This document shows positions 4,264-27,184 of a stretch of 55,339 nucleotides of DNA, piece by piece; positions within the stretch are counted from its first letter, which is position 1, and each line of letters starts with the position of its first letter. The notes under the pieces were generated by a model. It was not told the DNA's origin and did no database searches. It was given only the letters and a program-made list of their open reading frames with translations. The DNA lies in IMG/VR virus record IMGVR_UViG_3300035003_000007, positions 1 through 55,339 of that record; one strand, given 5' to 3'. Both the position numbers and the translations under genes were made by a program. The DNA comes from a virus (Duplodnaviria; Caudoviricetes).

Positions 4264-4692
4264 TCACATCCGTATACCGTACCGCGTAGGCCAATCCGCT
4301 GCTGCTTTGCCTCGCATTGCCGATTCCCATTCCACTGGAAACGGCTCCATCAGCCCCGGCAGCGTCATCCCTTCGGGCTGCCGCCCGTACACGATCGCCT
4401 CCACCACCGCCGGCGCCAACAGCGTCAGGTTCAGCAACCGCCCGACATAGCCACGGTCGACCCCCTCGGCCTTCGCCAGTTCGCGGATTGAGCCATACCG
4501 CCCTTCCTCCAGCATCCGCCGCCACCGGAACGCCCGCGCCAGCGCCTTCACCAACGCCGGATCGCCGCGCGTGGTCATGACGCCAGCGCTGTCCGAACCG
4601 GCCTGCACCGCCGCCCCATCCGGCCCGATGATCTGCTTCCGCCCGCCGCGCCGCCGGATCGTCATGGGCACCACCACCGTCACGCTGGTCAT
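4264..4692 (-). CDS. Conserved recombinase-associated protein with HTH-like segment
   Basis: ATG at 4692 overlaps the recombinase stop (ATGA). Contains MTIRRRGGRKQII and ALARAFRWRRMLEEGRYGSIRELAKAEGVDRGYVGRLLNLTLLAP, a sequence type usually found after or fused to these serine recombinases. Confidence 0.75.
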   Translation of the reverse strand: MTSVTVVVPMTIRRRGGRKQIIGPDGAAVQAGSDSAGVMTTRGDPALVKALARAFRWRRMLEEGRYGSIRELAKAEGVDRGYVGRLLNLTLLAPAVVEAIVYGRQPEGMTLPGLMEPFPVEWESAMRGKAAADWPTRYGIRM

Positions 4693-6013
4693 GCCGCAAT
4701 CCCCTCCCCTTTCGCTGCCATGTCCCGCGCCAGCCCGGCCAGCCCTTCCAGATTCAGCCGGATCTGCGCGCCGGCGTCGCCGACCGTCACGCGCTCGACC
4801 AGCAGCCGCACGATCCGCTCCTGCTCGCCGGGGAACAACTCGTCCCACAGCGGGTCGAGCCGCCCGAGTGCGTCGCGCACTTCGGCCTCAGTCACATCAG
4901 GCGCCTCGGCACGCGCTGCGCGCCACGTGCCGACGATGACCTCCGGCTGGCGGAGCAGGGCGCGGACCTGGGCCATCACCAGCCCCTCGACCTCGCCCGC
5001 AGGCAGCCGCCGATGCGGCGCGTCGTTCGCGCCACCCTGCAGCACCGCCTGGCTGACGTAGTAGCGGTAGAGCCGTCCGCCCTTGCGCGTGTAGGTCGGC
5101 GACATCGCCCGCCCGTCCGGACCGAACAGCAGGCCGCGGAGCAAGGAGGGCGCGCCGGCGCGGTTCTTCGCGCCACGCTCGCGCGGGCTTTCCTGCAGGA
5201 TGGCGTGCACACGATCCCACAGCGTCTGCGAGATGATGGCCACGTGCTCGCCGGGATGGGATGTCCCCTTGTGCACCGCCTCGCCGACGTAGACCCGGTT
5301 CACCAGCAGCTTGTAGAGCGCGCCCTTGTCGAAGGGGCGGCCAGTCTTCGTCAACAGCCCCTCGGCGCGCAGCAACGGCAGCAGCTTGGTGGCGGAGCCG
5401 ATCTCGGCGAAGCCCTCGAACACGCGCCGCACCGTCGCCGCAGCAGCCTCGTCCACCAGCAGCTTGCGATTCTCGACGCGATAGCCGAGCGGCACTGGCC
5501 CGCCCATCCACATGCCCCGCGCGCGAGAGGCGGCGATCTTGTCCCTCACCCGCTCGCCGATTAATTCTCGCTCATACTGCGCGAAGCTGAGCAGCATGTT
5601 GAGCGTCAGCCGCCCCATGCTCGTGGTCGTGTTCAGCGACTGCGTAATCGCAACAAACGTGACCTCGTGCGCCTCGAAGATCTCGACCAGCTTCGCGAAG
5701 TCCATCAGCGATCGGGACAGCCGGTCCACTTTATAGACCAGCACGACGTCCACCAGCCCGGCCTCGATGTCGGCCAGCAGCCGCTTCAGCGCTGGGCGCT
5801 CCAGCGTGCCGCCACTGACCCCGCCATCGTCGTAGCGGTCGTGCACCAGCACCCAGCCCTCGGAGCGCTGCGACGCGATGAACGCCTCGCATGCCTCGCG
5901 CTGCGCCTCGAGCGAGTTGAACTCCTTCTCCAGCCCCTCGTCGGTCGACTTCCGGGTGTAGACGGCGCAGCGGAGCTTGCGCACCTTCGCCGGCATGGCG
6001 GCATCGCGGCGGG

Positions 6014-6017
<4 letters not shown>
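4689..6017 (-). CDS. Large serine recombinase (resolvase + recombinase domains); probable integrase
   Basis: RCAVYTRKST catalytic serine motif, DRLSR, and FAQYERE...ERVRDKIAASRARGMWMGG. Start placed at the ATG 6017 overlapping the upstream stop. Confidence 0.93.
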
Positions 6018-6501
<484 letters not shown>

Positions 6502-8075: not shown

Positions 8076-8497
8076 TGGGCAAGGCCTCGCGCGACAAGGG
8101 GATGCGGCGCGAGCGTGCGCTGGTCGAGATTCACACGAAGTGCGGCATCCATGCCGAGCGCGTGCCGCTGTCTGGCGCGACGCACTACCAGGGGAACGGC
8201 GCCGACATCGACCTCCATGTGCGCGGGCCACAGCCGCTGAAGGCTGAGGTCAAGGCGCGTGGCGAGGGCAACGGCTTCAAGACCTTGCACCGCTGGCTTG
8301 GCGACAACGACGCGCTGTTCCTGTGGCGCGACCGCGCTGCGCCCTTCGTCGTGCTGCCGCTGCATGTCTGGCTCGAGATCGCCGGCCGCAGCGCACGGCT
8401 CGATGCCGACCTTGACGCCGATCGCCGCGAGCGCCGCGACGGCATCGAGAACGGCCCCGTCCCGTCGAATGACGCCGTCGCTCGGAGCGCCGCGTGA
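8072..8497 (+). CDS. PD-(D/E)XK Holliday junction resolvase-like nuclease
   Basis: MGKASRDKGMRRERA...SGA...GADIDL...AEVKAR matches the Hjc-like phage pattern. Confidence 0.75.
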   Translation: MMGKASRDKGMRRERALVEIHTKCGIHAERVPLSGATHYQGNGADIDLHVRGPQPLKAEVKARGEGNGFKTLHRWLGDNDALFLWRDRAAPFVVLPLHVWLEIAGRSARLDADLDADRRERRDGIENGPVPSNDAVARSAA

Positions 8498-8607
8498 TGC
8501 GCCGCCACGTCCTCGAGGCGCTGCGCCTCTTGCTCGGCGGCGTGCTGTTCGCCGCGAGCGTCATCGCCCTGCTCTGGGCTGCCGAACTCCTGGAGGTGAC
8601 ACGATGA
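8497..8607 (+). CDS. 36-aa single-pass membrane peptide
   Basis: MRRHVLEALRLLLGGVLFAASVIALLWAAELLEVTR. Coupled on both sides (TGATG at 8495-8499, ATGA at 8604-8607). Below the ORF-track size cutoff. Confidence 0.65.
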   Translation: MRRHVLEALRLLLGGVLFAASVIALLWAAELLEVTR

Positions 8608-9080
8608 GCAACCGCACCACCCTGGCGCAACTGCGCGACATGACGGCGGCGCAGGCCGCACGCCTGCCCGTCGATCATCTGGCGCTGCTGCTGGAAGAGA
8701 TCGGGGCGCTGAAGGCCGACGCCAAGCATCTCGCCGACCTGCTGCATGACGCCCTGCATGCCCGCTACGGCGCCGCCGCCGCCGCGACCCGTCGCGCCGA
8801 GGGGAAGGACACCGGCCGTGTCCGCATCGCGGATGACGCCTTCGAGGTCGTCGCCGACTTGCCGAAAAAAGCGGCGTGGGACCAGCCGAAGCTGGCCGCG
8901 GCGGTCGCCACCATCGTGGCGTGGGGCGAGGACCCTGCCGACTACGTCACCACCGAGATCCGCGTGCCGGAAAGCCGCTTCACGGCCTGGCCGCCGCGCA
9001 TCCGCGCCGTCTTCGAGCCGGCGCGAACCGTCGCCACTGGCCGCCCCTCTTACACCCTCGAACAGAAGGACGCCGCGTGA
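8604..9080 (+). CDS. Hypothetical phage protein
   Basis: MSNRTTLAQL...GKDTGRVRI...DLPKKAAWDQPKL; GGAGG RBS and translational coupling. Confidence 0.8.
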   Translation: MSNRTTLAQLRDMTAAQAARLPVDHLALLLEEIGALKADAKHLADLLHDALHARYGAAAAATRRAEGKDTGRVRIADDAFEVVADLPKKAAWDQPKLAAAVATIVAWGEDPADYVTTEIRVPESRFTAWPPRIRAVFEPARTVATGRPSYTLEQKDAA

Positions 9081-9268
9081 TGGCGCACGAACTCCGCATC
9101 CAGGTCGTCATCCCATTGCAGGGCGATGCCGTCGCCCGCGCGAAGGACGTGGCTGCCTTCGAGCCGACGCTCGACGGCTTCACCGAAGTCGTCGCCCGCG
9201 CCGGCGGTGAAATCAAGGTGGACGTCATCAAGGCCAAGCCGCGCGCCGCAAAGCAGGAGACGCACTGA
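9080..9268 (+). CDS. Small hypothetical protein
   Basis: MAHELRIQVVIP, 62 aa; TGATG coupling at both ends. Confidence 0.65.
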   Translation: MAHELRIQVVIPLQGDAVARAKDVAAFEPTLDGFTEVVARAGGEIKVDVIKAKPRAAKQETH

Positions 9269-10038
9269 TGGCGATCTCCCTCGCATCCCTGCGCACCAGC
9301 ACCAGCCTCACGCCACCGCGGCTGCTCACCTATGGCGTGGCCGGCGTCGGCAAGACGCTCTTCGCGACGTCGGCGCCGCGTCCCGCTGTCATCCAGACAG
9401 AGGATGGGCTTGGCACCATCAGCGCGTCCACCTTCGGCGTGCTGCGCAGCTTCGACGAGGTGATGGAGGCAATCAGCAGCCTCTATTCCGAGCCGCATGA
9501 CTTCCAGACCGTCGTCGTTGACAGCCTGGACTGGCTGGAGCCGCTGATCTGGCAACACACCGCGCAGCTTCACAACCAGCCGAACATCGAGGCCTTCGGC
9601 TACGGCAAGGGTTACGCGGCCGCAGCCGACACGTGGCGCAGCGTCCTCGAAGGGCTGAACGCCCTGCGCGACGAGCGCGGCATGGCGGTGATCCTGCTCG
9701 CCCACGCTGAGATCAAGCGCTTCGACAGCCCTGAGACCGAACCCTACGACCGCTATCAGCCGAAGCTCCACCGCAGTGCATCCGCGCTGGTGCAGGAGCA
9801 TGTCGATGCCGTGCTCTTCGCGAATTATCGCGTCACCACCATGAAGTCGGACGTCGGCTTCAACAAGAAAGTGGTGCGCGGTGTCAGCGGCGGCGACCGC
9901 CTGCTGCACACCGTCGAGCGCCCGGCCTTCCTCGCGAAGAACCGCTTCGGCCTGCCGGAGACGCTGCCGCTCTCCTGGCCCGACTTCGCCGCCGCCGTCC
10001 CCTTCTACGCCAACGCCACCCCGAGCCCGCGGAGCTGA
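9268..10038 (+). CDS. AAA_24 family ATPase (Sak4-like single-strand annealing protein)
   Basis: Walker A YGVAGVGKT, Walker B VVVDSLDWLE, FLAKNRF; next to DUF669. Confidence 0.85.
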   Translation: MAISLASLRTSTSLTPPRLLTYGVAGVGKTLFATSAPRPAVIQTEDGLGTISASTFGVLRSFDEVMEAISSLYSEPHDFQTVVVDSLDWLEPLIWQHTAQLHNQPNIEAFGYGKGYAAAADTWRSVLEGLNALRDERGMAVILLAHAEIKRFDSPETEPYDRYQPKLHRSASALVQEHVDAVLFANYRVTTMKSDVGFNKKVVRGVSGGDRLLHTVERPAFLAKNRFGLPETLPLSWPDFAAAVPFYANATPSPRS

Positions 10039-10041: not shown

Positions 10042-10599
10042 ATGGCCCAGTTGAACGACACCTTCGATGCCACCGGCGTCGCGCCTGCCGCGCCGATGGA
10101 GCTGCTGCCGCCCGGCCGCTATGCCGCGCAGATCGTCAACAGCGAGATGCGCGCCACCCGCGCGGGCACCGGCCAGTATCTCTGGCTGGAGATGGACATC
10201 CTCGAAGGCCCGCATCACGGCCGGAAGCTCTGGGACCAGCTCAACCTGGTGAACCAGAGCCAGCAGACGGTGGAGATCGCCCAGCGCACCCTCTCGGCGA
10301 TCTGCCATGCGGTCGGCCAGCTGCAGGTGAGCGACAGCGAGCAGCTGCATTTTCGGCCCGTGCAGGTGACGCTCACCGTCGAGCCGGACAGCCGCGACAA
10401 GCATCTGCCGCCGCATGAGCAGCGCAAGCAGAACCGGGTCAAGGGCTATGCCCCGCTCGGCGGTGCGGCGCCGGCGCGTCCGGTAGCGGCGGTGACGAGT
10501 GAGCGACATGCCCAACAGCGGGAACCTCGCCCGGCCGCGCCCCCGGCGCGCCCCGCGGCGCCGACAACCGCGACGCCGCCCTGGCGGCGGGCGGGCTGA
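10042..10599 (+). CDS. DUF669 protein (SSB-like)
   Basis: LLPPGRYAAQIVNSEMRATRAGTGQYLWLEMDILEG...GRKLWDQLNL, with a PPW tail. Confidence 0.85.
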   Translation: MAQLNDTFDATGVAPAAPMELLPPGRYAAQIVNSEMRATRAGTGQYLWLEMDILEGPHHGRKLWDQLNLVNQSQQTVEIAQRTLSAICHAVGQLQVSDSEQLHFRPVQVTLTVEPDSRDKHLPPHEQRKQNRVKGYAPLGGAAPARPVAAVTSERHAQQREPRPAAPPARPAAPTTATPPWRRAG

Positions 10600-10601: not shown

Positions 10602-11564
10602 ATGGTGTCGCTCCCCACCCCCACCAGCCCGACCGTGGACGCGATCTACGCCGCCTATGAGGCGGCGGCGGACCACGGTTATCGGGAGCATCTCGGCGCC
10701 TCGCTGATCGGCACCGGCTGCGAGCGCGCCATCTGGTACACCTTCCGCTGGGCGACCCGGGCGCGCCATGCCGGCCGGCTGCTGCGGCTGTTCGAGACGG
10801 GCAATCTTGCGGAGGCCCGCTTCGTCGCCGACCTGCGTCGCATCGGCGTCACCGTGCTCGACGTCGATCCCGCGACGGGGCGGCAGTGGAAGCTGCGTGA
10901 CGCCAGCGGCCACTTCGGCGGCAGCATGGATGGCGTGGCGCTCGGCCTGCTCGAAGCGCCGCGCACCTGGCACGTCTGCGAGTTCAAGACCCACAGCGCG
11001 AAGTCCTTCGCCAAGCTGCAGGCCGATGGCGTCGCCGCGTCGAAGCCGACCCACTGGGCGCAGATGCAGGCGTACATGCATCTCGCCGGGCTGGATCGCG
11101 CTTTCTACCTGGCGGTCTGCAAGGACACGGATGCGCTCTACCAGGAGCGCATCCATCACGACGCCGAGGCCGGGTTGCGCATCCTGGCGAAGGCAGCGCG
11201 GATCATCAACGCGGTGCGGCCACCATCGCGCATCAGCGACGATCCGGCGTGGTGGGAATGCCGGTTCTGCGACCATCACGCCGTCTGCCACGCCGGCGCG
11301 GTGCCCGAACGGCATTGCCGGTCCTGCCTGCACGCCACCCCCATCGCTGACGGCGCATGGCACTGCTCGCGGCATCAGCACGCGCTGTCCCGGCGCGACC
11401 AGCAGGCGGGCTGCGGTGCGCACCTCTACATCCCGGACCTCATCGCCGCCGAGCAGATCGACGCCGGCGAGGACTGGGTCAGCTACCGGCTGCCAGATGG
11501 CAGCGCATGGCGCGACGGCGCCACCCCCATCCCCGAGACGCAGGAGATCTCCGATGCCGCTTGA
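10602..11564 (+). CDS. Cas4-like PD-(D/E)XK exonuclease
   Basis: HLGASLIG..CERAIWY, GSMDGVA, CEFKT, QMQAYM, C-terminal CRFC..C cluster. Confidence 0.85.
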   Translation: MVSLPTPTSPTVDAIYAAYEAAADHGYREHLGASLIGTGCERAIWYTFRWATRARHAGRLLRLFETGNLAEARFVADLRRIGVTVLDVDPATGRQWKLRDASGHFGGSMDGVALGLLEAPRTWHVCEFKTHSAKSFAKLQADGVAASKPTHWAQMQAYMHLAGLDRAFYLAVCKDTDALYQERIHHDAEAGLRILAKAARIINAVRPPSRISDDPAWWECRFCDHHAVCHAGAVPERHCRSCLHATPIADGAWHCSRHQHALSRRDQQAGCGAHLYIPDLIAAEQIDAGEDWVSYRLPDGSAWRDGATPIPETQEISDAA

Positions 11565-13119
11565 TGCGCCGTCCAGCGTGCTGCTGAAGCCGCTCGCCTT
11601 CATCACCGCCTTCCACGAGGTGCGCCCGCTCAACCCGGCCTATGTCGAGCGGCTGCGCCAGAAGGTGCGCGCGATCGGCGTGAAGCCCTATCCGCTGTCG
11701 GTGACGCCCGCCGGCGCGCTGTTCGGCGGCCGGCACCGCTACGAGGCCTTCCGGGCCGAGGGCATCACCGAGTGCCTGATGCACATCTCCGAGCCGGCGA
11801 GCCTGGATCGCGAAGCCATCGAGCTGAATCGCGCCAGCGAAGACGCGCTGCCCATGTCGTTCGTCGACTACGCCGAGATGGTGTGGCGGAAGCATGCGGC
11901 CAGCGCCACGCAGCAGGCCATCGCCGAGGAGATGGGGTGGAGCCGCGAGGCCGTCCGGAACTATGCCGGCCTCGCGAAGATCGACCCTCGGGCGTGGGCC
12001 ATCATTGGCACGGCCTTTCAGTCCGGCGGGGCGGCACGGGACGAAGACGCCGTGCCAGCGTTTGGCACGGCCGTGCCATTCACCGAGTTCCTGCTGCGAA
12101 ACATCCTTTTCCTCACCGCCGACCAGCAGCTCGACTTGGTGCAGGATCTCGCCGCCGGCAGGATCAACAAGAATAAGTTCAAGGTGCAGGCCGAAGCCTA
12201 TCGCACCCGCAACGCCATCGCGGATTGGGTGCGCGACCAGCTTGGCGAGATCGATCCGGAAATCGTCGCCGAATCTGCGGCCGAGGTGATGCGCGGCGCC
12301 TATGACGCCGAGTGGGTCACCTACGCCGAGAACGGCATCGATCCGCCGAAGCTCACCCGTCTGGTGGAGGCCGCCCGCGCCCGCTTCGCGAAGAAGCACA
12401 GCCTCATCCTGATCCATGGCGACTTCCACGCGGAGATCGCGAAGCTTGGCGACGCCTCGGTGGACGCGGTCATCACCGATCCGCCCTACCGGATCAGCAC
12501 CGACCGCGTCTATCGCCTCGCCAGCCAGGCCGACTGGAACAAGAACTTCGGCGCCTGGGACAACCAGCCCGAGGGCGAGTTCCTCGCCGACATCCGCCGC
12601 TGGGCCGACAGCTTCTTCCGCGTCATGAAGCCCGGCGCCTCCGGCTTCCTGTTCGTCGGCGAACCCTATCTCAACATCACCCAGGCGCTGTTCGACGCGG
12701 CCGGCTTCGAAATCAAGGGCAGCTTCTTCTGGTGCCGATCGAATCCCGGCACCTCGGTCACCAAGGCCGACTTCATGCCGGCGATGGATCACGCCATCCA
12801 GTTCGTGAAGCCCGGCGCGCGGCGCACCTTCAACTATCCGGGCGAGCCGGAGGCCTTCAACTGGTTCCAATCGCCGATCTGCGGCGGCCATGAGCGCCTG
12901 AAGACGCCGAAGGGCGAGACGCTCCACCCGACGCAGAAGCCGGAGGCGGTGATCCGTCACCTGATGGATCTGATCACCCTGCCGGGTGACCTGGTGCTGG
13001 ACGGCTTCATGGGCACCGGCACGACGGGGAAGGTGGCGCGCGACACGGGCCGGCGCTTCGTCGGCATCGAGCAGGACGCCGGCTTCTTCGCCGCGGCCAA
13101 GGCGCGGGTGGAGGGCTGA
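11554..13119 (+). CDS. ParB (CTPase + HTH) fused to a beta-class N6A/N4C DNA methyltransferase
   Basis: AGGAG RBS, ATG 11554. GRHRYEA matches the GxxRxxA ParB box. HTH TQQAIAEEMGWSREAVRNY. MTase motif IV TDPPY, HPTQKP, and motif I VLDGFMGTGTT. Confidence 0.88.
   Translation: MPLDAPSSVLLKPLAFITAFHEVRPLNPAYVERLRQKVRAIGVKPYPLSVTPAGALFGGRHRYEAFRAEGITECLMHISEPASLDREAIELNRASEDALPMSFVDYAEMVWRKHAASATQQAIAEEMGWSREAVRNYAGLAKIDPRAWAIIGTAFQSGGAARDEDAVPAFGTAVPFTEFLLRNILFLTADQQLDLVQDLAAGRINKNKFKVQAEAYRTRNAIADWVRDQLGEIDPEIVAESAAEVMRGAYDAEWVTYAENGIDPPKLTRLVEAARARFAKKHSLILIHGDFHAEIAKLGDASVDAVITDPPYRISTDRVYRLASQADWNKNFGAWDNQPEGEFLADIRRWADSFFRVMKPGASGFLFVGEPYLNITQALFDAAGFEIKGSFFWCRSNPGTSVTKADFMPAMDHAIQFVKPGARRTFNYPGEPEAFNWFQSPICGGHERLKTPKGETLHPTQKPEAVIRHLMDLITLPGDLVLDGFMGTGTTGKVARDTGRRFVGIEQDAGFFAAAKARVEG
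12006..12078. repeat. Cluster of GGCACGG half-sites including the perfect 16-bp palindrome TGGCACGGCCGTGCCA (parS-like)
   Basis: Half-sites at 12006-12015, 12033-12039 and 12049-12057 (inverted), plus the palindrome at 12063-12078. All lie inside the ParB-MTase gene just after the HTH. Confidence 0.7.
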
Positions 13120-13123
13120 GCCG

Positions 13124-13534
13124 ATGAGCGACGGCACCAACCCCATGCGTTGGGACTGCGGCAGCCGTGGCTGCTTCAACCAGCTGCGCCGCCCGAAGAT
13201 CGAGCGCTTCGCGGCCTGCTTTCCGGGGCGGATCGCAATGAGCGACATCGATGCGACCGTGGAGGTGAACGGCCACTTCGTTTTCCTGGAGATGAAGAGT
13301 TTCCGGGGCGAGATCCCGCGCGGCCAGCGCATCTACTTCGAGCGCCTCACGCGACTCTCCGACCGCATCACCGTGCTGGTCCTGTGCGGCGATGCGGAGA
13401 CCATGCAGTGCGAGGCACTGCGCTGGATCCACAACGGGCATCTGTCCGATTGGCAGCCGGCGACGCTCGACGACGTCATCCGGCTGCTGAACAAATTCGC
13501 GAACTGGGCGCAGGTGCAGGGAGCCGCGGCATGA
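13124..13534 (+). CDS. Small restriction-endonuclease-fold (PD-(D/E)XK) protein
   Basis: SDIDATVEVNGHFVFLEMKS...GQRIYFE. Starts 4 bp after the MTase stop and overlaps the helicase start. Confidence 0.7.
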   Translation: MSDGTNPMRWDCGSRGCFNQLRRPKIERFAACFPGRIAMSDIDATVEVNGHFVFLEMKSFRGEIPRGQRIYFERLTRLSDRITVLVLCGDAETMQCEALRWIHNGHLSDWQPATLDDVIRLLNKFANWAQVQGAAA

Positions 13535-15114
13535 CGCTCTCCCTCCGCCCCTATCAGCGTGCGGCCATCGACGCGCTCTACGATTACTTCGCCGGCAACA
13601 CCGGGAATCCGCTCGTGGTGATTCCCACCGCAGGGGGCAAATCCGTCGTCATCGCGGGCTTCATCCGCGAGGCGATCGCCGCCTATGCCGACACCCGGGT
13701 TCTGATGCTCACGCACCAGCGGGAACTGATCTCCCAGAATTTCCAGGCGCTGCTCCGCGCCTGGCCGGATGCGCCGGCGGGCATCTATTCCGCCGGCCTG
13801 TCGCGCCGCGATATCCGCGCGCAGATCCTGTTCGCAGGCATCCAGTCGATCCACCGCCACGCCTATCAGGTGCAGCGCTGCGACCTGGTGCTGATCGACG
13901 AGGCGCATCTGCTCGGCCGCGGCGACAGCGGCATGTATCGCTCCTTCCTCAAGCAGCTGAACGAGATCAATGCCGGGCTGCTGAAGGTCGTCGGCTTCAC
14001 CGCCACACCCTACCGCCTCGACAGCGGGCTGCTCCACGAGGGCAAGGACCGGCTGTTCACCGACATCGCCTATGAGGTGCCGGTGCTGGACATGATCCAG
14101 CAGGGCTACCTCTGCCCCGTCGTCCCGAAGCAGACCACGACGCAGCTCGACGTCGGCGGGGTCGGCACCCGCGGCGGCGAATTCATCGCGAAGGATCTCG
14201 AGGCGGCGGTCGACCGCGATGAGGTGACGCGCGCCGCGGTCGCCGAGATTGTCCAGCACGGCGAGGGACGCGGCTCCTGGCTGGTGTTCTGCTCCGGCGT
14301 GGCCCATGCACGCCATGTCCGCGACGCCATCCGCGAGCATGGCATCTCCGCCGAGACCGTCACCGGCGACACGCCGGCGCCCGAGCGGGACGGCATCCTC
14401 GCCGCCTTCAAGGCAGGGCGGCTGCGCTGCGTCACCAACGCCAACGTGCTCACCACCGGCTTCGACGCGCCCGGCACCGATCTCGTCGCGCTGCTGCGCC
14501 CCACGAAGAGCGTCGGCCTCTACGTCCAGATGGTCGGCCGCGGCACGCGGCTCGCCGAGGGCAAGGACGACTGCCTGGTGCTGGACTTCGCGGGCAATAC
14601 GGCGCGCCACGGCCCGATCGACACGGTGGACGGCCGAAAGAAGGAACCCGCCGGTGATGGCGAGGCGCCCATCAAGGTCTGCCCGGAATGCCAGACCATC
14701 AACCACGCCAGCGCGCGGCACTGCATCGAATGCGACCATGAGTTTCCGCCGCCGGCGGTGAAGGTTGCGGCGCAGGCGGCGTCGAACGCGCTGCTCTCGA
14801 CGCAGATCCAGGCGGCGTGGTGCGACGTGACGGGCGTCAGCTACGCCCGCCACGAGAAGCCCGGCAAGCCGACCTCGCTGCGGGTCACCTACGAATGCGG
14901 CCTGGCGCGGCACAGCGAATGGATCTGCTTCGAGCACACCGGCTTTCCCCGCGAGAAGGCCTGCTCCTGGTGGCGTCGACGCGCACCGCAGTTGCCGGCG
15001 CCCTCCTCGGTCGACGAGGCCCTGGAGCACCTCGACGCGCTGCGCCAGCCCATCGCAATCCAGGTGCGTCCCACCGGCCAGTACACCGAGATCACCGCGG
15101 CGAGGTTCATGTGA
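13531..15114 (+). CDS. SF2 DEAH-box helicase with zinc ribbon
   Basis: LRPYQ, PTAGGKS, IDEAH, TAT, QMVGRGTR, CPEC...CIEC. Confidence 0.93.
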   Translation: MTLSLRPYQRAAIDALYDYFAGNTGNPLVVIPTAGGKSVVIAGFIREAIAAYADTRVLMLTHQRELISQNFQALLRAWPDAPAGIYSAGLSRRDIRAQILFAGIQSIHRHAYQVQRCDLVLIDEAHLLGRGDSGMYRSFLKQLNEINAGLLKVVGFTATPYRLDSGLLHEGKDRLFTDIAYEVPVLDMIQQGYLCPVVPKQTTTQLDVGGVGTRGGEFIAKDLEAAVDRDEVTRAAVAEIVQHGEGRGSWLVFCSGVAHARHVRDAIREHGISAETVTGDTPAPERDGILAAFKAGRLRCVTNANVLTTGFDAPGTDLVALLRPTKSVGLYVQMVGRGTRLAEGKDDCLVLDFAGNTARHGPIDTVDGRKKEPAGDGEAPIKVCPECQTINHASARHCIECDHEFPPPAVKVAAQAASNALLSTQIQAAWCDVTGVSYARHEKPGKPTSLRVTYECGLARHSEWICFEHTGFPREKACSWWRRRAPQLPAPSSVDEALEHLDALRQPIAIQVRPTGQYTEITAARFM

Positions 15115-15464
15115 CATGCCGCACCTGCGCCCACCCCGCCTGGCACTGGAATTGGTGGCATCCCGCCCGAACGCTGCGCGTCCACTGGACCGTGCCGAGC
15201 TGCTCTCCCGTCTGCCTCAGCCTCTGGAGGGACCGTCGCATGGTTGATCCCAACGAGCAGGAAGTCGGCGCGATGCGCGCCGCCGGCGACATCGCCGGCC
15301 AGTTCATCGACGCCGTCGGCCGCACCGACATGGCCACCTGGTCCGAGCAGGACTGGCGCGGTTTCATCGAGGCCATCTGCGGCGCCTATGTCGATGCGCT
15401 GATCGAGCAGCAGATCGCCATCAACTCCGCACTCGGCAAGGTGCAGCCGGGGCCGCCGGCGTGA
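15111..15464 (+). CDS. DUF6511-like phage protein
   Basis: GTG overlaps the helicase stop. CxxC...CSxxC, then MVDPNEQE...GRTDMATWSEQDWRGFIEAICGAY. Confidence 0.7.
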   Translation: MTCRTCAHPAWHWNWWHPARTLRVHWTVPSCSPVCLSLWRDRRMVDPNEQEVGAMRAAGDIAGQFIDAVGRTDMATWSEQDWRGFIEAICGAYVDALIEQQIAINSALGKVQPGPPA

Positions 15465-17848
15465 GCGCCACGCCCAACTTCATGGCGCAATACGGCTCGC
15501 GGCTGGCGGACAACGGGTATCCCGTCATCCCGCTCATGCCGGGCAGCAAGGTGCCGGGCCGGCATCATGTCGGCCAGTGGACGCCCTATCCCGACTGGGC
15601 CCGGCATTGCGACCGCACGACGAAGCCCTTCGAGGTGGACATCTGGCAGCGCTGGCCCGGCTGCGGCGTCGGCATCGCAGCCGGCGTCGTGGTGGGCATC
15701 GACATCGATGTTCTGGACGCCGCGCTCTCCATCCAGATCGCCGATCTGGCGGCGCAGATGCTGGGCGACACGCCATGCTGGCGCATCGGCCGCGCGCCGA
15801 AGCGCATGCTGGTCTATCGGGCGGACAGCCCCTTTGCCGGGCGCAAGCGCCATCCGCTCGAGCTCCTCGCCCGCGGCCAGCAATTCGTGGCCTATGCCGT
15901 GCACCCGGACACTGGCCAGCCCTATGCTTGGCCGGAGGCCAACCTGCTGGACGTGCCGCTGGACCGGCTACCGGCCGTCGATGAGGCGGCCTGCCTGGCC
16001 TTTCTGGACGCCGCCTGGCAACTCGTCCCGGAGGCGCTGCGGACACGCTCTCTCCGCCTCGAGGACAGCCAGGGCGCATGGAAGGGCGCCTCGGATCCCC
16101 GCGGCACCTACGACGCGGTGAAGGCGGCGCTGGCCTTCCTTCCCAACGAGGACCTGGACGGCCATTCCTGGATTACCATGGCGAACGCCATCAAGGCGGC
16201 GCTGGGCGAGGAGGGCCGGCAGCTCTGGCTCGACTGGTCAAAGTCGAGCGCCAAGTCGGGGCTGTCGGGCAGGCCGGACACAGCGGAGCGCCGCTGGGCC
16301 TCGCTGCGCCCCCACAGCGTCGGCGCCGGCAGCATCTACGGCCTAGCCATCGCACGCGGCTGGGTACCGCCGCCCGACATCACCCTGAATGCCGATGCGG
16401 CAGAACGCGCCGCGCAGCCGCACCCGGCAGCGGCGCTGCTGGCCAGGGCGGAGGCGACGCCGCCAGCGCCGCAGCCCGAGGCCGCCCACCCCGCGGCGGC
16501 GTTGCTGGCCATGGCAGAGGCCACGCCGCTGCCGCCCGCGCCGGAGCCGAAGCCCTATCGCGTGCCGCCGGAGCTGCTGCAGGTGGATGGCGTGCTCGCC
16601 CGGTTCGTGGAGTACGCCACGGCCAGCGCGGTCAGCCCGCAGCCCTTTCTCGCCCTCGGCGCGGCCATCTGCCTGGTCGGCGCCGTCGCCGGCCGGCGCT
16701 ATCGCACCCCCACCGACTTGCGCAGCAACCTGTACGCCATCGGCATCGCGGATAGCGGCGGCGGCAAGGACCACGCGCGCCGCTGCGCGAAGCGGGCGCT
16801 CTACGCCGCCGGCCTCGATCGCTATCTCGGCGGCGAGGATTTTGCGTCGTCGGCCGGATTGCTGGCGTCGCTGCAGCACCATCCCGTCCGTCTGTTCCAG
16901 GTGGACGAGTTCGGCCAGTTCCTGAAGCTGGTGCTGTCGCCGCGCGCGCCGACGCACAAAGCCGCCATCTGGACCGAGCTCACAAAGCTCTACACCTCCG
17001 CCGCCGAGGCCTTCATCGGCGCCGAATACGCCGACCAGAAGACCAAGCCGCGCGTCACCATCGAACAGCCCTGCGCCTGCCTCTGGGGCGTCACCGTGCC
17101 CGGCCCGTTCTGGCAGGCGCTGGAAGGCCGCGCGCTTGGCGACGGCTCCATCGCGCGCTTCCTGGTGTTCCTCAGCGACGATGACTATCCGGAGCGCAAC
17201 GAGGCGCCCGCACCGGCGACGCCGCCTGCCGCTCTCGTGGCCGGGCTGCAGGCCATCGCCCGCGGCGTGCCGGGTCACAGCTACGGCGGCAACCTGGCCG
17301 AGGCGATGTCGAGCACGATCTCGACCCAGCCCTATGCCGTGCCGCTCACTGCCGATGCAGAGGCCGCCATGGCGGCGGTGCAGCGCGAAGCCACCGACCT
17401 GCTCCGCGTACATCGCGGCTCCTATGCCACGGCGCTGTTCGGCCGCTATGCCGAGAACACCGCGAAGCTCGCAATGATCGCCGCCGTCAGCCGCGATCCA
17501 GCGAAGCCCGTGACACAGGCCCGCGACGTCACCTGGGCAGCGGCGCTCGTCGAGCATTGCATCTGCACGCTGCTGCGCGAGGCCGACCAGCGCGTGTCGG
17601 ACAACAGCACCGAGGCGAACCACAAGCGGCTGCTGGCCATCATCCGCGACGGGGGGCGGCTGTCGCGCAGCGACGTCACGCGCCGATCGCAATTCCTGTC
17701 GCGCCGCGAGCGGGAGGAAATCCTGGCCTCGCTGATCGAGGGCGGGCTGATTGTGGCGGAGCAGCAGGCCAGCGCCACCAAGCCGGCCACTCTCTACCGC
17801 GCGACGACGGCGAACAAAACACCATCGTTCAAGGGAGGCACGAGATGA
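15461..17848 (+). CDS. Primase-polymerase with PriCT-2 and DUF3987-type helicase domain
   Basis: GYPVIPL..GSKVP, GIDIDV, GQQFVAYAVHPDTG; PriCT WITMANAIK...WSKSSAK; SGGGKD and QVDEFG. Confidence 0.9.
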   Translation: MSATPNFMAQYGSRLADNGYPVIPLMPGSKVPGRHHVGQWTPYPDWARHCDRTTKPFEVDIWQRWPGCGVGIAAGVVVGIDIDVLDAALSIQIADLAAQMLGDTPCWRIGRAPKRMLVYRADSPFAGRKRHPLELLARGQQFVAYAVHPDTGQPYAWPEANLLDVPLDRLPAVDEAACLAFLDAAWQLVPEALRTRSLRLEDSQGAWKGASDPRGTYDAVKAALAFLPNEDLDGHSWITMANAIKAALGEEGRQLWLDWSKSSAKSGLSGRPDTAERRWASLRPHSVGAGSIYGLAIARGWVPPPDITLNADAAERAAQPHPAAALLARAEATPPAPQPEAAHPAAALLAMAEATPLPPAPEPKPYRVPPELLQVDGVLARFVEYATASAVSPQPFLALGAAICLVGAVAGRRYRTPTDLRSNLYAIGIADSGGGKDHARRCAKRALYAAGLDRYLGGEDFASSAGLLASLQHHPVRLFQVDEFGQFLKLVLSPRAPTHKAAIWTELTKLYTSAAEAFIGAEYADQKTKPRVTIEQPCACLWGVTVPGPFWQALEGRALGDGSIARFLVFLSDDDYPERNEAPAPATPPAALVAGLQAIARGVPGHSYGGNLAEAMSSTISTQPYAVPLTADAEAAMAAVQREATDLLRVHRGSYATALFGRYAENTAKLAMIAAVSRDPAKPVTQARDVTWAAALVEHCICTLLREADQRVSDNSTEANHKRLLAIIRDGGRLSRSDVTRRSQFLSRREREEILASLIEGGLIVAEQQASATKPATLYRATTANKTPSFKGGTR

Positions 17849-17910
17849 TGCATTTGGTGCGCCGAGAAAAATCCGCGGCTCGAAACCCAGGCGGACGGCC
17901 GGTCAGGGCC

Positions 17911-18043
17911 AGACTTTCAATAACTCAATTCTTCACGCGCACGCGCAGATACACACCCGTGGGCGCCCTTGGGGGGAGAGGAAGGGGTATATTGAAGTAT
18001 TATATATTATTGAATTATCTCCTCTCCCAAGGGGGCGCCCCCT
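17911..18043. promoter_or_regulatory. Candidate replication origin
   Basis: AT-rich core TATATTGAAGTATTATATATTATTGAATTAT in very GC-rich DNA, directly after the primase gene. TTCAATA (17916) faces two TATTGAA copies (17990, 18008). Imperfect inverted arms GGGCGCCCTTGGG..GAGAGGA and TCCTCTCCCAAGGG..CGCCC. Confidence 0.55.
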
Positions 18044-18080
18044 CCCACCAACCCGCGCTCACGCTTTCGCGAGGTGGCGC

Positions 18081-18311
18081 ATGAGCCTGCCAGGCGCCCC
18101 GCAGCCGCCGCGGTCCTGCCTCGACCGCGGCTCCCGCAGCGCGACGACCACGCCCGAGATGGAGATGCTGCGCCGGCGCGTCTGGCAGCAGCAGGGCGTC
18201 ATCTCGCTGCACCTCGAAGACATCACCGACCCCTGGCTACGCCAGGCCATTCAGAACGAAGCCACGCGGCGCTGGGGGCCGCGCAATGGAGGACAGAACT
18301 ATGGCCGGTAA
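18081..18311 (+). CDS. Hypothetical phage protein
   Basis: GAGG RBS; LRRRVWQQQGVISLHLEDITDPWLRQ. Confidence 0.7.
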   Translation: MSLPGAPQPPRSCLDRGSRSATTTPEMEMLRRRVWQQQGVISLHLEDITDPWLRQAIQNEATRRWGPRNGGQNYGR

Positions 18312-18846
18312 GCGCAAGTCGAAGCGGGTGGTCGAGGATCTCGCGAAGCCGTCGAAGTGGCGGCTGCAGCATGGCGGCTTCTCGGCGCCGATCCGCGACG
18401 CCGATCCCGAGACCGGCAGCCCGGTCGAGCATCGGCGTGCCGTCGACACGCTGGGCATGATGCTGGCGAACGGCACCATCACCCCGCAGATGCACGAGGC
18501 GGGGTGCATCTTTCGCACGCTGTTCCGCTCGGCGGCGCTGGACGGCATCGCCACCTCGCAGCTGATCCGGCTGGCGGGCGCGACGAATGACGATATGCCG
18601 GGCCGTCAACTCGATGCCCGGCGTCGTGTCGCGAACGCGATCGACGCCCTCGGCGGCCACGACAGCCCCGCCGGCTCCTGCGTGTGGTTCGTCGTTGGCC
18701 TGGAGTTCTCGGTGCGCGAATGGTCGGCACGCCAGGGCTGGGCTGGGCGTATCGTGCATGGCCCCGTGGGCCAGGGCATCCTAGTCGGCGCGCTCGGCAC
18801 GCTGGCCATGCACTTCGGGCTGACGCCGCGGCAGCGGGCTGCGTGA
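18301..18846 (+). CDS. Hypothetical protein (DUF6456-like), candidate late-gene regulator
   Basis: GGAGG RBS; TLGMMLANGTITPQMHEAG...CVWFVVGLEFSVREW. Last gene of the early operon, in a Q-like position. Confidence 0.7.
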   Translation: MAGKRKSKRVVEDLAKPSKWRLQHGGFSAPIRDADPETGSPVEHRRAVDTLGMMLANGTITPQMHEAGCIFRTLFRSAALDGIATSQLIRLAGATNDDMPGRQLDARRRVANAIDALGGHDSPAGSCVWFVVGLEFSVREWSARQGWAGRIVHGPVGQGILVGALGTLAMHFGLTPRQRAA

Positions 18847-18856
18847 GGCGGCTGCC

Positions 18857-19075
18857 TCACTCAGCGCCGAGGACGAACGCCACGGCCTCGGCGATCATCG
18901 TGAGCGGCAGCGCAGGGTGGTGCGCCAGGACGGCTTCGCGCACCGCCCGGCTATACGGGTCACCCCGCCCCTGGACGCCTGCCGGAGGGCGTCGGGCAGC
19001 CCTTGCGGCGGCCAGGGCACCCGGGCTCAGCCATGGCGGCGGGGGACGTGGTGGGGCGCCGTCGGGCATCCCCAA
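18857..19075 (-). CDS. Small hypothetical protein
   Basis: 72-aa ORF divergent from 19145 and sharing the SOS-box intergenic region. Confidence 0.4.
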   Translation of the reverse strand: MGMPDGAPPRPPPPWLSPGALAAARAARRPPAGVQGRGDPYSRAVREAVLAHHPALPLTMIAEAVAFVLGAE

Positions 19076-19093
19076 CGATAGCCTCCCCTACCA

Positions 19094-19108
19094 GAACAAG
19101 ACAAGAAC
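19094..19108 (+). promoter_or_regulatory. Alphaproteobacterial LexA (SOS) box GAAC-N7-GAAC
   Basis: GAAC-AAGACAA-GAAC is an exact consensus match in a divergent intergenic region, 36 bp before the ATG at 19145. Confidence 0.75.
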
Positions 19109-19144
19109 ATGCTATGCAGCGCAGAGACCCAAAGGAGAAGATCC

Positions 19145-19486
19145 ATGGCCGCTCGAAGGCAGGCACGCGTGCGTCCCGTCGACGCCGCGATTGTCCGATT
19201 GATGGCGCTCGCCGCGAAGGCCGTTCCGCCGCACCGCATTGCGCGCGAGGTCGAGGTGATCGTCGCCGAATGGCTACGCGCGCCCGACGCCGACCCCATC
19301 GAGGCAAAGGGGTGGCTGGACGAACTGCGCGAGAAGATCGTCGTGGGCGTTGCTGACGCCGAGGAGCAGCTCTCGGACATCGACACCAGCGAGCCGGCCG
19401 CGGTGAAGCAGGCGCAAGCCACGCTGGCGGCGCTGGTCGCCACGCGGGATGCCGCTGAGCGTGCGCGGGCTGCTGTCCGCACATGA
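19145..19486 (+). CDS. Helical hypothetical protein (probably SOS-regulated)
   Basis: AAGGAG RBS, ATG 19145, 113 aa, predicted all-alpha. Confidence 0.65.
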   Translation: MAARRQARVRPVDAAIVRLMALAAKAVPPHRIAREVEVIVAEWLRAPDADPIEAKGWLDELREKIVVGVADAEEQLSDIDTSEPAAVKQAQATLAALVATRDAAERARAAVRT

Positions 19487-19747
19487 GCCAGGGTTGTTCA
19501 CTTTGCGCGTATGGCCAAGCGGCCGCATCGCCTGACCATCTGGGGAATGTGGGCCAACACGGCCTCGCATTTCTGCGTTGGGCCTGCATCAGGCTCATGG
19601 TCGGAAAACTCTGCCAGAAAGCGCTATGATCCCGGATGGACTCCAAGGAACCACGGATCTAGTGCGAGAAGTGGCGCTGGGCGACGGGTGGACACTGGAA
19701 CTCTCTGTCTACCTTGCGAGACGCTGACGGCAGGGAGTGTCGGAGCC

Positions 19748-20755
19748 ATGGCCACCATCAGCAACCTGACCAGCCGCAATGCGGTTCTGCAAGCCATCAA
19801 GGAATACGACGACCTGGGACGCGATGACTTCCTCAGCCGCTATGGCTTCAGGAAATCCAGATCATACGTCCTGATCCACCAGGACAAGCACTACGACAGC
19901 AAGGCCATCGCTGGAGTGGCGTTGAAGTACGAGCCGGGCGTTGATCGAGCCTTGAGGTCCGATGAGTTCTCGGGCGGTGCGAACACGGTGCAGGCGAAGT
20001 TGGAGGAACTCGGCTTCGTGGTCCGAGCCTTCGCCGAGCCCCTGTTGATCCCCAGCACGGCCGCGTCTCGCACCACCGACAAAGAGACCCAGCGCGATAG
20101 CCTCGTTCTGCTCGCTCCGGACGAGGAATTCGCACCGGGTTCGGGAAGGCAGAAGACTTGGGACATGCTGCGATCATCCGTCAACTTGGAGGAGTTCGCT
20201 CAGAAGTTCGCAGCGGCAACGCCAGTCGCTCCAAGCATCACAGTGGCCAACTTCCTATCCTGGCTTCGACGATCCGGGCGAGCGGTCATGGCACAGGGCG
20301 AAGCAATCCGACACCTTCGTCCCGTCGACGCCGACGATGAACCCTTCGATCCCGAGAACATCACCGACGCCCGCGAGAAGGTCCGTCGTGAGATCCGAGC
20401 CCGCCGGGGCCAAAAGCAGTTCCGCGATGCCCTAATCGAAGCCTACGCGGGCCGCTGCGCCATCACCGGCTGCGATGTCCTCGACGTCCTGGAAGCCGCG
20501 CACATCACGCCATACCTCGGTCCCGAGACGAACCACGTCACAAATGGGCTCCTGCTGCGCGCGGACCTCCACACGCTCTTCGACACTAACCTCGTCGCTG
20601 TGGATCCGGAGACGCTGCAGGTGCTGGTGGCGCCCAGGATCCACGACCCGGCGTACCGGGCGCTGCATGGGCAGCCGCTACGGGCAACGAAGACAAAGGC
20701 ATCAATGCCGAGTGAGGCGGCGGTCAAGCAGCACCTGGCGAATTGCTCGTGGTGA
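19748..20755 (+). CDS. HNH endonuclease with ScoMcrA-like N-terminal head domain
   Basis: GGAG RBS. N-terminus AVLQAIKEYDDLGRDDFLSRYGFRKSRSYVL...YDSKAIAGVA. C-terminus RRGQKQFRDALIEAY.GRCAITG...EAAHITPY...NGLLLRADLHTLFD (HNH_2 type). Confidence 0.88.
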   Translation: MATISNLTSRNAVLQAIKEYDDLGRDDFLSRYGFRKSRSYVLIHQDKHYDSKAIAGVALKYEPGVDRALRSDEFSGGANTVQAKLEELGFVVRAFAEPLLIPSTAASRTTDKETQRDSLVLLAPDEEFAPGSGRQKTWDMLRSSVNLEEFAQKFAAATPVAPSITVANFLSWLRRSGRAVMAQGEAIRHLRPVDADDEPFDPENITDAREKVRREIRARRGQKQFRDALIEAYAGRCAITGCDVLDVLEAAHITPYLGPETNHVTNGLLLRADLHTLFDTNLVAVDPETLQVLVAPRIHDPAYRALHGQPLRATKTKASMPSEAAVKQHLANCSW

Positions 20756-21043
20756 CCCCCCACGGGGGCTCACGACACGCCTCGCCGCTCGTCACGCTCG
20801 CGTCGCGCTTCCATTTCGACCTCCAAGCGTGCCACCATCTCGACAGCCGCCTCAGTAGGCTTAGTCGGCGTGCCGCAGCCCGCGGCGCTCAGGAAGCCTT
20901 TCCTCGATGCGCTGTTACAATTCACCCCATGGCGGCGCGCAAATCGCGTTGGGTATAGTGGGGACACGTCGAGAAGGTGCGTCGAGCGCCGCGGCTCCCG
21001 AGCCACTCGCCAGCTGATCAGCCACTGTGGCTTTCGAGCCGCA

Positions 21044-21209
21044 GGGTCCTTCCTGGCCCCGCTGTATGCGGGGGGCGGAAGCGCGCAAGGTCGCTAGCGC
21101 CAGGCCGAAAAACAGGGTTGCGGTTTGCAGCCTTTTCCCCGTGCGATCAGCCAGATAGCCCGCAAACCATGCCGCGCACGGTTTGCACTCACGGCTGGAT
21201 GGTTTGCAC
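21044..21209 (+). other. Candidate lambda-like cos packaging site (cosQ-cosN-cosB)
   Basis: GGGTCCT (identical to lambda cosQ) at 21044, then TGCG-GGGGGCGGAAGCG-CGCA, then four GGTTTGC sites (21122, 21162 inverted, 21180, 21201). The prophage encodes a GpA terminase. Confidence 0.65.
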
Positions 21210-21233
21210 CCACTCCCAGATTCGGATGGCATC

Positions 21234-25743: not shown

Positions 25744-26574
25744 ATGAAGCTTTCCGACACGCAGCGCGCGATCCTCGCCGCCGCCGCCGAGCACCCCGAG
25801 CACCTGGCCTACCCGCCCGAGCGCCTGCCGGCCGGCGCGAAGCAGAAGGTGGCGCAGGCTCTGCTGAAGAACGACCTAGTCATCGGCGTGCATCGCCCCG
25901 CCTACGAAGCCATCGCGAAGTGGACGGTGGACGGCGACGAGCTGCTGCTGAAGATCACCGACGACGGGCTGCGCGCGATCGGCATCGACCCGAACGCGGG
26001 CGACGCGGCGGAGGAGGACGAGCAGAGCGCCGCCGCCATCGCGCGCCGCAACGCCGAGCGCCGCGCCGCCGCAGAGGCTGCCGCGCCGGTGGCCGACACG
26101 GCGCCCACGGGCGGGGGGGACGCCGCGGAGGCGGAGGCCGCCGCGGAGGAAGCCGAACCCACCCAGGGCGCGCCCACGCCCGCCCCGCGGGCCAGCCTGC
26201 GCGACGCCGCGCAGCGGGTCCTCGATGCCTGGGAGGACGAGGCCAACCAGCGCTACGACCTGACCGACGCGATCGACGCCCTGCGCCAGATCCTGGCGAA
26301 GCCCGCCCGCGCCACGCGCGAGACCGGCGCGCCGCGGAAGCCGCGCGAGGGCACGAAGCAGGAGACGGTGCTGGCGATGCTCCGCCGCGAGGAGGGTGCG
26401 ACCATCGCGCAGATCTGCGAGGCAACCGGCTGGCAGCAGCACACGGTCCGCGGGTTCTTCGCCGGCCTGAAGAAGAAGGGCTACGCGGTCGAGGTGCTGG
26501 AGCGGATCCGCCAGGTCGGCCCGAACAAGACGGGCGCGAAGGGCTCCTTCGCCATCTATCACCTGCCGGCCTGA
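25744..26574 (+). CDS. DUF3489 domain protein
   Basis: MKLSDTQRAILAAAA; C-terminal GTKQETVLAMLRREEGATIAQICEATGWQQHTVRGFFAG. Confidence 0.88.
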   Translation: MKLSDTQRAILAAAAEHPEHLAYPPERLPAGAKQKVAQALLKNDLVIGVHRPAYEAIAKWTVDGDELLLKITDDGLRAIGIDPNAGDAAEEDEQSAAAIARRNAERRAAAEAAAPVADTAPTGGGDAAEAEAAAEEAEPTQGAPTPAPRASLRDAAQRVLDAWEDEANQRYDLTDAIDALRQILAKPARATRETGAPRKPREGTKQETVLAMLRREEGATIAQICEATGWQQHTVRGFFAGLKKKGYAVEVLERIRQVGPNKTGAKGSFAIYHLPA

Positions 26575-26592
26575 CCACGGAGCCGGACACGT

Positions 26593-26626
26593 CGAGGGCC
26601 CGCCGCCCGACGGTAGCGGGCCCTTG
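26593..26626. terminator. Hairpin after DUF3489
   Basis: CGAGGGCCCGC...GCGGGCCCTTG stem; weak U tail. Confidence 0.45.
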
Positions 26627-27180: not shown

Positions 27181-27184
27181 GCAT

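Follow-up and report, generated by a model that had tools for sequence, protein, structure and literature searches.

A provirus ParB-type methyltransferase gene with an intragenic site array that co-evolves with its recognition helix

The window analysed here is the whole of a 55,339-base provirus record (IMGVR_UViG_3300035003_000007; Duplodnaviria, Caudoviricetes), which is 93% complete according to CheckV and has a G+C content of 69%. One of its genes (positions 11554–13119, plus strand) encodes a ParB–HTH (helix–turn–helix)–methyltransferase, P0001, and carries within its own coding sequence an array of half-sites that includes a perfect 16 bp palindrome. Computation on homologous genes shows that the sites of the array are under selection at the DNA level and that they co-evolve with the recognition helix of the encoded protein. 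From this co-variation we predict with considerable confidence that the HTH of P0001 binds the array in its own gene. The fuller statement, that P0001 is a ParB-family methylase whose self-read array has the role of a nucleation site, is one that we hold to be moderately probable. The original prediction, made from the letters of the window and their open reading frames (ORFs), had described this combination and had proposed that the protein loads on its own gene, spreads and methylates only DNA molecules that carry the site; its observation is confirmed, and its mechanism is plausible but unproven.

The ParB–HTH–methyltransferase gene and its array

The features of the gene are as follows (window coordinates).
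11572–11853, plus strand: ParB/sulfiredoxin-type N-terminal domain (N-domain), about residues 7–100, assigned through matches of profile A3 to solved structures
11890–11994, plus strand: ParB-type HTH, residues 113–147, with a weak Pfam HTH_ParB match (E 0.008) and an alignment to Spo0J and Noc
11935–11973, plus strand: recognition helix GWSREAVRNYAGL, residues 128–140, aligned to GKARSTVANALRLL of Spo0J and to the Noc helix
11995–12078, plus strand: insert in the DNA-binding domain, residues 148–175 (about 28 codons), whose codons carry the site array
12006–12011, plus strand: half-site A, TGGCAC
12032–12037, plus strand: half-site B, CGGCAC, with one mismatch; its orientation varies among lineages
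12052–12057, minus strand: half-site C, reading GTGCCA on the plus strand
12063–12078: site D, the perfect 16 bp palindrome TGGCAC-GGCC-GTGCCA (TGGCACGGCCGTGCCA), with a parS-like 6-N4-6 layout
12400–13116, plus strand: β-class N6/N4 DNA methyltransferase domain (PF01555), residues 283–521
12478–12489, plus strand: DPPY, residues 309–312

The translation, profile searches and the PF01555 match bear out the originally described fusion of a ParB-type N-domain, a Spo0J/Noc-type HTH and a β-class DPPY methylase. In our reading, a helical connector lies between the DNA-binding domain and the methylase, the latter being an adenine methylase of the CcrM kind. Full-length homologues contain 520–521 residues and begin MPLDA, and full-length relatives at 35–52% identity carry both PF02195 and PF01555 in precomputed annotation. 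Profile A3, which was built from the N-terminal halves of 39 sequences, matched solved structures over profile positions 7–149, which span the nucleotide-binding N-domain and the HTH; the matches include Spo0J (1vz0, E 3e-15), Noc (7ng0/7nfu, E about 5e-14), B. subtilis Spo0J (6sdk, E 7e-13), sulfiredoxin (6ky4, E 3e-10), Caulobacter ParB (6t1f, E 9e-10) and KorB (8qa8, E 1.5e-7). P0001 is assigned to ParB because of these profile matches and of the full-length relatives with PF02195. In the N-domain, box I is represented by R24, box II by G59-x-H61-R62-x-x-A65 within GGRHRYEA (residues 58–65, nt 11725–11748) and a box III-like element by N92; all 39 sequences have R24, G59, H61 and R62, and at least 90% of them have N92. 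In the HTH, the stretch GWSREAVRNY aligned with GK(S/A)RSxVAN of ParB and Spo0J, and the A3 alignment places R131 and N136 at the positions of R173 and N178 of Caulobacter ParB, both of which are listed as parS-contacting residues, with R173 as a specificity residue, in the accessible text of PMC7383237.

The PF01555 match covers residues 303–516 with an E value of 4e-32 (112.4 bits against a cut-off of 26.7); D309, P310 and P311 do not vary among homologues, at least 90% of which also have Y312, and the methylase half matched CcrM (6pbd, E 4e-56) and a methylase named DpnA (5hfj, E 9e-52). Pfam placed PF01555 or ParB_N on all ten of the longer or distant relatives checked, among which no alternative effector domain appeared, and no cultured phage in the phage collection matched the N-terminal 285 residues at E values up to 1e-8. 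A shorter protein, P0045 (348 residues, from an 8.3 kb contig), is 81% identical, corresponds to the N-terminal 67% only and lacks the methylase domain; its source names it a transcriptional regulator, and it may be a natural ParB–HTH-only form or a broken gene.

The heptamer GGCACGG occurs 24 times in the window compared with 22.9 expected from shuffles, which amounts to no global excess; five of the 24 copies fall at 12007–12077, where about 0.02–0.03 would be expected in 71 bp by simple arithmetic. The original prediction had pointed to these five half-sites clustered after the HTH codons, as well as to the perfect palindrome and to an overlapping inverted pair (GCCGTGCCA at 12049–12057, N5, TGGCACGGC at 12063–12071), all of which are present as described. 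Site D is the sole match to its 16-mer with 0–2 mismatches in the window, and TGGCAC-N4-GTGCCA, allowing at most one mismatch, occurs once in the entire provirus record. The stretch that codes for the array is an insert rather than an inter-domain linker, because the Noc HTH ends just before it and the helix FTEFLLR follows it; this helix pairs with ITERHARAL of Noc, and Noc and Spo0J have no counterpart of the insert.

The first sign of the array in relatives was in the protein alignment, where linker residues pair as reverse-complement codons (GT/VP, AT/VA, VT/VT, VP/GT and SA/AD). The window was searched together with 240 loci from genome, viral and metagenome contigs, of which 52 hold the segment W148–R182, representing 46 distinct DNAs, and site D was called by a fixed 6-N4-6 search at the same codons. 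The homologous proteins are 32–95% identical and their sources comprise several phyla and viral contigs. A perfect 6-N4-6 palindrome stands at the same codons in 39 of the 46 distinct DNAs, and in 37 of the 46 its hexamer is repeated exactly at least twice more upstream. Omission of five rows with site D decayed or in another register (L085, L175, L019, L177 and L090) left a set of 41 loci. An exact copy of the locus's hexamer stands at site A in 35 of them, and the corresponding counts are 37 for site C and 24 for site B; elsewhere in the loci this hexamer occurs once per 1,570 nt. The hexamer varies among loci (23 types in 41), and within one gene the copies are alike. In either orientation, positions 1 and 4 of the hexamer coincide with the third bases of codons, and the copies agree there at 229 of 238 positions as against 60.5 expected from third-position composition; the constraint is therefore on the DNA and not on the peptide. 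The original prediction had turned on a palindrome cluster that recurs at the same place in homologues and is kept at synonymous positions, and both features are found in these loci. A chance origin of the array was rejected in view of the local GGCACGG cluster, the recurrence in relatives and the synonymous agreement.

Co-variation of the sites with the recognition helix

Across the 41 loci, the bases of the hexamer vary with residues 131, 135 and 136 of the recognition helix in the following manner.
Residue 135 R or K: G at hexamer position 3 (R with C4; K with T4 or G4)
Residue 135 A, V, T or G: T at hexamer position 3
Residue 135 S: C at hexamer position 3
Residue 136 D: G at hexamer position 5
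Residue 136 N: CA at hexamer positions 4–5
Residue 136 Q: TA at hexamer positions 4–5
Residue 136 K: GA at hexamer positions 4–5
Residue 131, varied: follows hexamer position 1

The palindrome does co-vary with the recognition helix, as the proposal of a self-read site had implied, and 24 of the 26 residue triplets at 131/135/136 map to a single hexamer. The pairings are chemically ordinary: G goes with Arg or Lys, A with Asn or Gln, T with small hydrophobic residues, and Asp with the cytosine of a G:C pair. In minimal pairs of loci, single replacements in the helix go with single base changes in the site. L018 and L015, a sister pair in the tree and both found in one Thermoflexales metagenome-assembled genome (MAG), differ in the helix by R135K only and in all copies of the site by C4T only; D136N goes with G5A (L007 versus L018), Q136N with T4C (L171 versus L167) and S131K with A1G (L082 versus L006). 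For each specificity switch in the minimal pairs, four or five separate copies had to undergo an identical base change. L007 and L010 belong to the same Magnetococcales MAG and have different site specificities; the presence of different specificities within one genome bin hints at selection for orthogonality.

For sign tests, a tree was built without the HTH and insert columns. The site types are scattered on this tree, TGCTAC with S-Q occurring in four places and TGTTAC with A-Q in three. Independent-pair sign tests gave eight concordant pairs and none opposite for D136 versus G5 (p 0.008), about 6.2 versus 0 for R/K135 and G3 (p about 0.03), 7.4 versus 0 for small or hydrophobic residues at 135 and T3 (p about 0.016), 6 versus 0 for S/N135 and C3 (p 0.03) and 6.3 versus 0 for Q136 and TA (p about 0.03), with too few pairs for N136 and CA and for K136 and GA.

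The gene evolves fastest in its specificity cassette. Within the close clade, identity amounts to 90–96% in the N-domain and 80–96% in the methylase, compared with 40–75% in the helix region and 4–36% in the insert. Relative to L082, the N-domain and methylase are 96% identical, the helix region 45% and the insert 18%; relative to L018, which has the same hexamer as the window, the helix region is 65% identical and the remainder 34–36%. With only 30–140 bp between the site and the codons for its reader, the two are passed on as a single cassette and can switch specificity jointly. In some relatives (L008, L163 and L013), palindromes of the TGTTAC type (TGTTAC-GTCC-GTAACA) accompany A-Q or A-N helices, and ParB itself has A-N. 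Canonical parS, which we take to be TGTTNCAC-GTGNAACA, has an outer TGTT..C in common with these palindromes, and the TGTTAC-type sites are suggested to descend from a parS-like ancestor.

Inverted repeats with compensatory changes would also be expected of a conserved hairpin, and the repeats could accordingly be read as an RNA or single-stranded DNA hairpin, involved in mRNA stability or attenuation, rather than as protein sites. Within a gene, however, site A is identical to its direct copy in the left half of site D, which pairing does not demand, and the 4 nt at the centre of site D often lack self-complementarity. The minimum free energy of −44.9 kcal/mol lies close to that of shuffles (−43.1 ± 3.6 kcal/mol; z −0.5), Rfam gave no match and the co-variation with helix residues would be left unexplained. 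The hairpin reading was rejected on fold stability, the Rfam result and helix co-variation, and we regard it as extremely improbable.

Proposed role of the array and its genomic setting

In the mechanism that we infer, which comprises physical binding, nucleoside triphosphate (NTP) switching, spreading and cis-biased methylation, the HTH would recognise TGGCAC-N4-GTGCCA together with the three flanking half-sites, the bases being read by R131, R135 and N136. The array would most likely act as the one nucleation site in cis through which the methylase reaches the phage chromosome. The protein may then spread outwards from the array in ParB-like fashion as an NTP-gated clamp, and methylation would favour the DNA molecule that bears the array. 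The window-type palindrome occurs 0 times and once, respectively, in two related host genomes of 5–6 Mb, and the palindrome of L002 occurs once in its 5.9 Mb genome, in a prophage.

Several points weigh against this interpretation and are gathered here. As regards binding, the helix-to-site distance is so short that transfer of the whole cassette would carry both elements and inflate the co-occurrence counts; the minimal pairs argue against cassette transfer as the full explanation. The residue classes used in the sign tests were picked after the table had been viewed, and a protein-only check was therefore run on 266 further proteins, with the site inferred from the peptide alone. The region is held by 192 of these, of which 176 have a site-D pentapeptide compatible with the reverse complement; with stricter offsets of 0–2 the count is 160 of 192, compared with 4% of shuffled linkers. 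Fisher tables, in which relatedness is ignored, read 46, 0 / 2, 124 for A at residue 171 versus D136, 56, 2 / 15, 99 for G at residue 170 versus R/K135 and 24, 0 / 6, 142 for A at residue 170 versus S135. Site D is decayed in three or four lineages (L084/L085/L162, L019 and L175). In L084, L085 and L162, which have an identical linker (proteins P0046 and P0050), K replaces the near-invariant W129 of the helix; the right half of site D is decayed (TGTGAC-GGAC-GGCACA), and the upstream GTGAC/GTCAC copies persist.

As regards the confinement of loading, the palindrome type of L001, TGGCGC-N4-GCGCCA, occurs 24 times in its 5.3 Mb host genome (G002), in which the reversed pattern has 0 occurrences. 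The exact AACT centre of the prophage site is found in two of the 24 copies, which may represent a second related prophage. The site is therefore not always exclusive to phage DNA, and loading would not always be phage-confined.

As regards the clamp, Pfam ParB_N was not detected in P0001 as a single sequence. Box II (GGRHRY) looks sulfiredoxin-like and the glutamates of the GERR and ENLQR motifs are missing, so that binding and hydrolysis of cytidine triphosphate (CTP) are uncertain; according to the accessible text of PMC12704722, the nucleotide of ParB-fold proteins (CTP, or adenosine or guanosine triphosphate, ATP or GTP) is unpredictable from sequence. A C-terminal ParB dimerisation domain was not found in P0001, in which residues 283–521 are PF01555 methylase; by conjecture, a methylase dimer might replace this missing domain in clamp closure.

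The gene sits within a densely packed early operon with the following order.
9268–10038: AAA_24 gene
10042–10599: DUF669 gene
10602–11564: Cas4-like PD-(D/E)XK exonuclease gene
11554–13119, plus strand: ParB–HTH–methyltransferase gene (P0001, 521 residues)
13124–13534, plus strand: small ORF of 136 residues (P0002)
13531–15114: SF2 helicase gene
15461–17848: Prim-Pol/PriCT-2/DUF3987 gene

The gene for P0001 shares its first 11 nt with the end of the exonuclease gene before it, P0002 begins 4 nt past the methylase stop, and the stop of P0002 overlaps the helicase start (ATGA) at 13531. This tight coupling would suit an autoregulatory operator, as would the D..ExK gene found downstream in most loci and the co-variation, which points to binding of the protein's own gene: the HTH would throttle its own gene and the coupled nuclease and helicase, with methylation genome-wide in trans. 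Some restriction–modification methylases with N-terminal HTHs, or C-proteins, set the ratio of methylase to nuclease in this way. The sites lie, however, about 450 nt inside the ORF, and a search of 11300–13700 found 0 promoter-like elements; a repeat search of 11000–22900 returned chiefly long imperfect GC-rich pairs. An operator would also leave unexplained the parS-like 16 bp geometry and the retention of a ParB-type NTP-fold domain with its invariant R24, G59, H61 and R62. We consider this account of the array unlikely; an operator role is compatible with the nucleation-site role, and the two are not exclusive.

A small D..ExK gene that begins within a few bases of the methylase stop is an almost constant neighbour, though the wider context changes. 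The D..ExK genes at this place belong to at least three unrelated families. Among P0002 homologues (n = 45), C12, C17, D41, D43, K58, G67 and Q68 never vary and E56 is present in at least 90%, and tblastn found such homologues downstream in 13 of 51 other loci. P0002 itself has no match in Pfam, PHROG, NCBIfam, PADLOC or PDB sequences; a search of the Atlas gave, as a lead only, a VRR-NUC cluster (rank 28, score 0.93) with PF08774 on 14% of its members. Another 23 distinct downstream proteins form one BLAST cluster; of the 20 that were aligned, all have D52 and K68 and at least 90% have E67. The Atlas leads here, again leads only, are NOV_C, PDDEXK_14 and PDDEXK_16. When this family was compared with that of P0002 by hhalign, the motif alone aligned, with a probability of 0.87%, which is not significant, and a PDB sequence search with the profile of the larger downstream family returned nothing meaningful. 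Five other downstream proteins were compared with Pfam, PHROGs, NCBIfam and PADLOC and had no match save for the neighbour in L182, which is a Pfam PDDEXK_11 protein (E 2e-29), and that in L015, which matched a methylase-like PHROG; L088 and L174 share a further downstream family. No downstream ORF of at least 60 residues is present in L018, L163, L165 or L167, of which two have little sequence left. PADLOC classed the methylase as MTase_II or orphan MTase and made no call on the small proteins.

The PD-(D/E)XK gene that had been placed 4 bp downstream of the methylase thus stands as regards its adjacency and its conserved D..ExK motif, and its assignment to PD-(D/E)XK holds at the motif level only; P0002 is a candidate PD-(D/E)XK or VRR-NUC-like nuclease. 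The occurrence of unrelated downstream families with the same motif suggests a functional pair with the methylase. VRR-NUC-like genes are also ordinary in phage replication modules. A self-marking system, in which the methylase would load solely on array DNA and methylate in cis, the co-transcribed PD-(D/E)XK nuclease would attack unmarked host or co-infecting DNA and the hypervariable reader–site cassettes would define incompatibility groups of competing phages, is a tentative extension of the nucleation-site role that we think doubtful.

The replication-module context (AAA_24, DUF669, Cas4-like exonuclease, helicase and Prim-Pol) is found in the window and in Rhodospirillales and Magnetococcales relatives only. 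A gene inside such a module, with a unique site cluster within the gene of its own binding protein, would also fit an origin of replication or a site for packaging (pac) or nicking, with the ParB-type domain serving as a site-directed nickase; the ParB–methylase Bce_0392 is reported to nick DNA in the accessible text of PMC5512222. Distant members retain the array, yet no window-type replication genes were detected beside them, and an origin role is therefore unlikely to be general. In L087 it is a large terminase that lies 2.2 kb downstream of the ParB–methylase gene; the domain that is always fused is a methylase, and no AT-rich unwinding element was noticed beside the array on reading, with no formal test. 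An origin, pac or nicking role appears to us quite improbable, and we retain nucleation as the favoured role.

The provirus lacks ParA, as originally stated: the deviant Walker A motif KGGxGK[ST] was found in none of the six frames of the 93%-complete record, and there was no AAA_31 or CbiA match. Other genes of the provirus are as follows.
4689–6119, minus strand: serine integrase
28398–30833: portal
32045–34249: head/protease gene
43092–45335: tape-measure gene
47447–50875: tail gene

Two more fusions of ParB_N and N6_N4 methylase, adjacent and overlapping, lie at 21183–22703 and 22642–23949 (both plus strand), for a total of three ParB–methylase fusions in the provirus. Both belong to phrog_498, have ParB_N matches in Pfam that fall under the cut-off (E 3–5e-4) and have no Pfam HTH; their position upstream of the portal and head genes is that of a ParB-Tls (terminase large subunit)-type locus. 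The ORF at 18286–18846 (plus strand), downstream of the primase gene, has a DUF6456 match just under the cut-off (25.8 versus 26.3 bits), and the ORFs at 8259–9080, 19109–19486, 1961–2665 and 25876–27417 have no family match.

Comparison with known systems

If the residue-to-base code at positions 131, 135 and 136 is true, it would supply dozens of natural orthogonal ParB–parS pairs, and the reader–site pairs could serve as orthogonal ParB–parS systems for DNA labelling. Each member of the family gains a predicted cognate site that is readable from the gene itself, and ParB-type loading as a means of targeting an enzyme to one DNA molecule becomes directly testable. The 23 hexamer types paired with helix residues form a natural specificity data set that shows how HTH specificity evolves. 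The gene is also an example of a rare type of sequence, in which a protein stretch is dictated by the gene's second role as the predicted binding site of its product, an effect that shows at synonymous positions. In the literature searched, no intragenic, co-varying site array was described for ParB–methylase genes.

Phage lambda O offers a parallel in another protein family: the iterons of its origin lie where its gene encodes a linker, and between related phages they change along with the DNA-binding domain. P0001 differs from lambda O in protein family and in its fused enzyme; its gene context is not constant, and the analysis gave no sign of origin function. The idea that a ParB-like module directs DNA modification in phages is that of Iyer et al. 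(2013), as cited in the accessible text of PMC6536676 and PMC4738411, and a ParB-like activator of a phage thymine dioxygenase is described in that of PMC13229309. ParB-Tls methylases, as far as the accessible sources describe them, share with P0001 the concept of a ParB-like module that steers an enzyme of DNA modification to phage DNA; the likeness extends to the provirus, with its two such genes upstream of the packaging genes, and to L087, in which the gene is near a terminase. Unlike these ParB-Tls-type paralogues, which have no Pfam HTH, P0001 has a ParB-type HTH and a site-bearing insert and lies in a replication module.

Fusions of a ParB-CTPase fold with an N6_N4 methyltransferase (PF01555) are enriched in phages and prophages, with a function that is just suggested, according to the accessible text of Kaljevic et al. 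(PNAS 2025; PMC12704722). P0001 shares with these fusions its domain combination, its prophage location and the lack of ParA; it differs from that account in having a predicted cognate site, an intragenic array and a recognition code, none of which is mentioned in the accessible text. With ParB–parS, Noc–NBS and KorB–OB, P0001 has in common the homologous N-domain and HTH and a 16 bp palindromic site. Its specificity appears to be set by a few recognition-helix residues, as is that of ParB versus Noc (accessible text of PMC7383237), and a parS site within parB has a precedent in parS-359 of B. subtilis (accessible text of PMC4442127). Unlike the members of these systems, P0001 is without ParA and without a C-terminal dimerisation domain, has a DNA methylase as its C-terminus, carries its sites in a dedicated coding insert and belongs to a family of hypervariable specificity. 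The self-sited ParB–methylase family is a new version of the ParB–parS theme.

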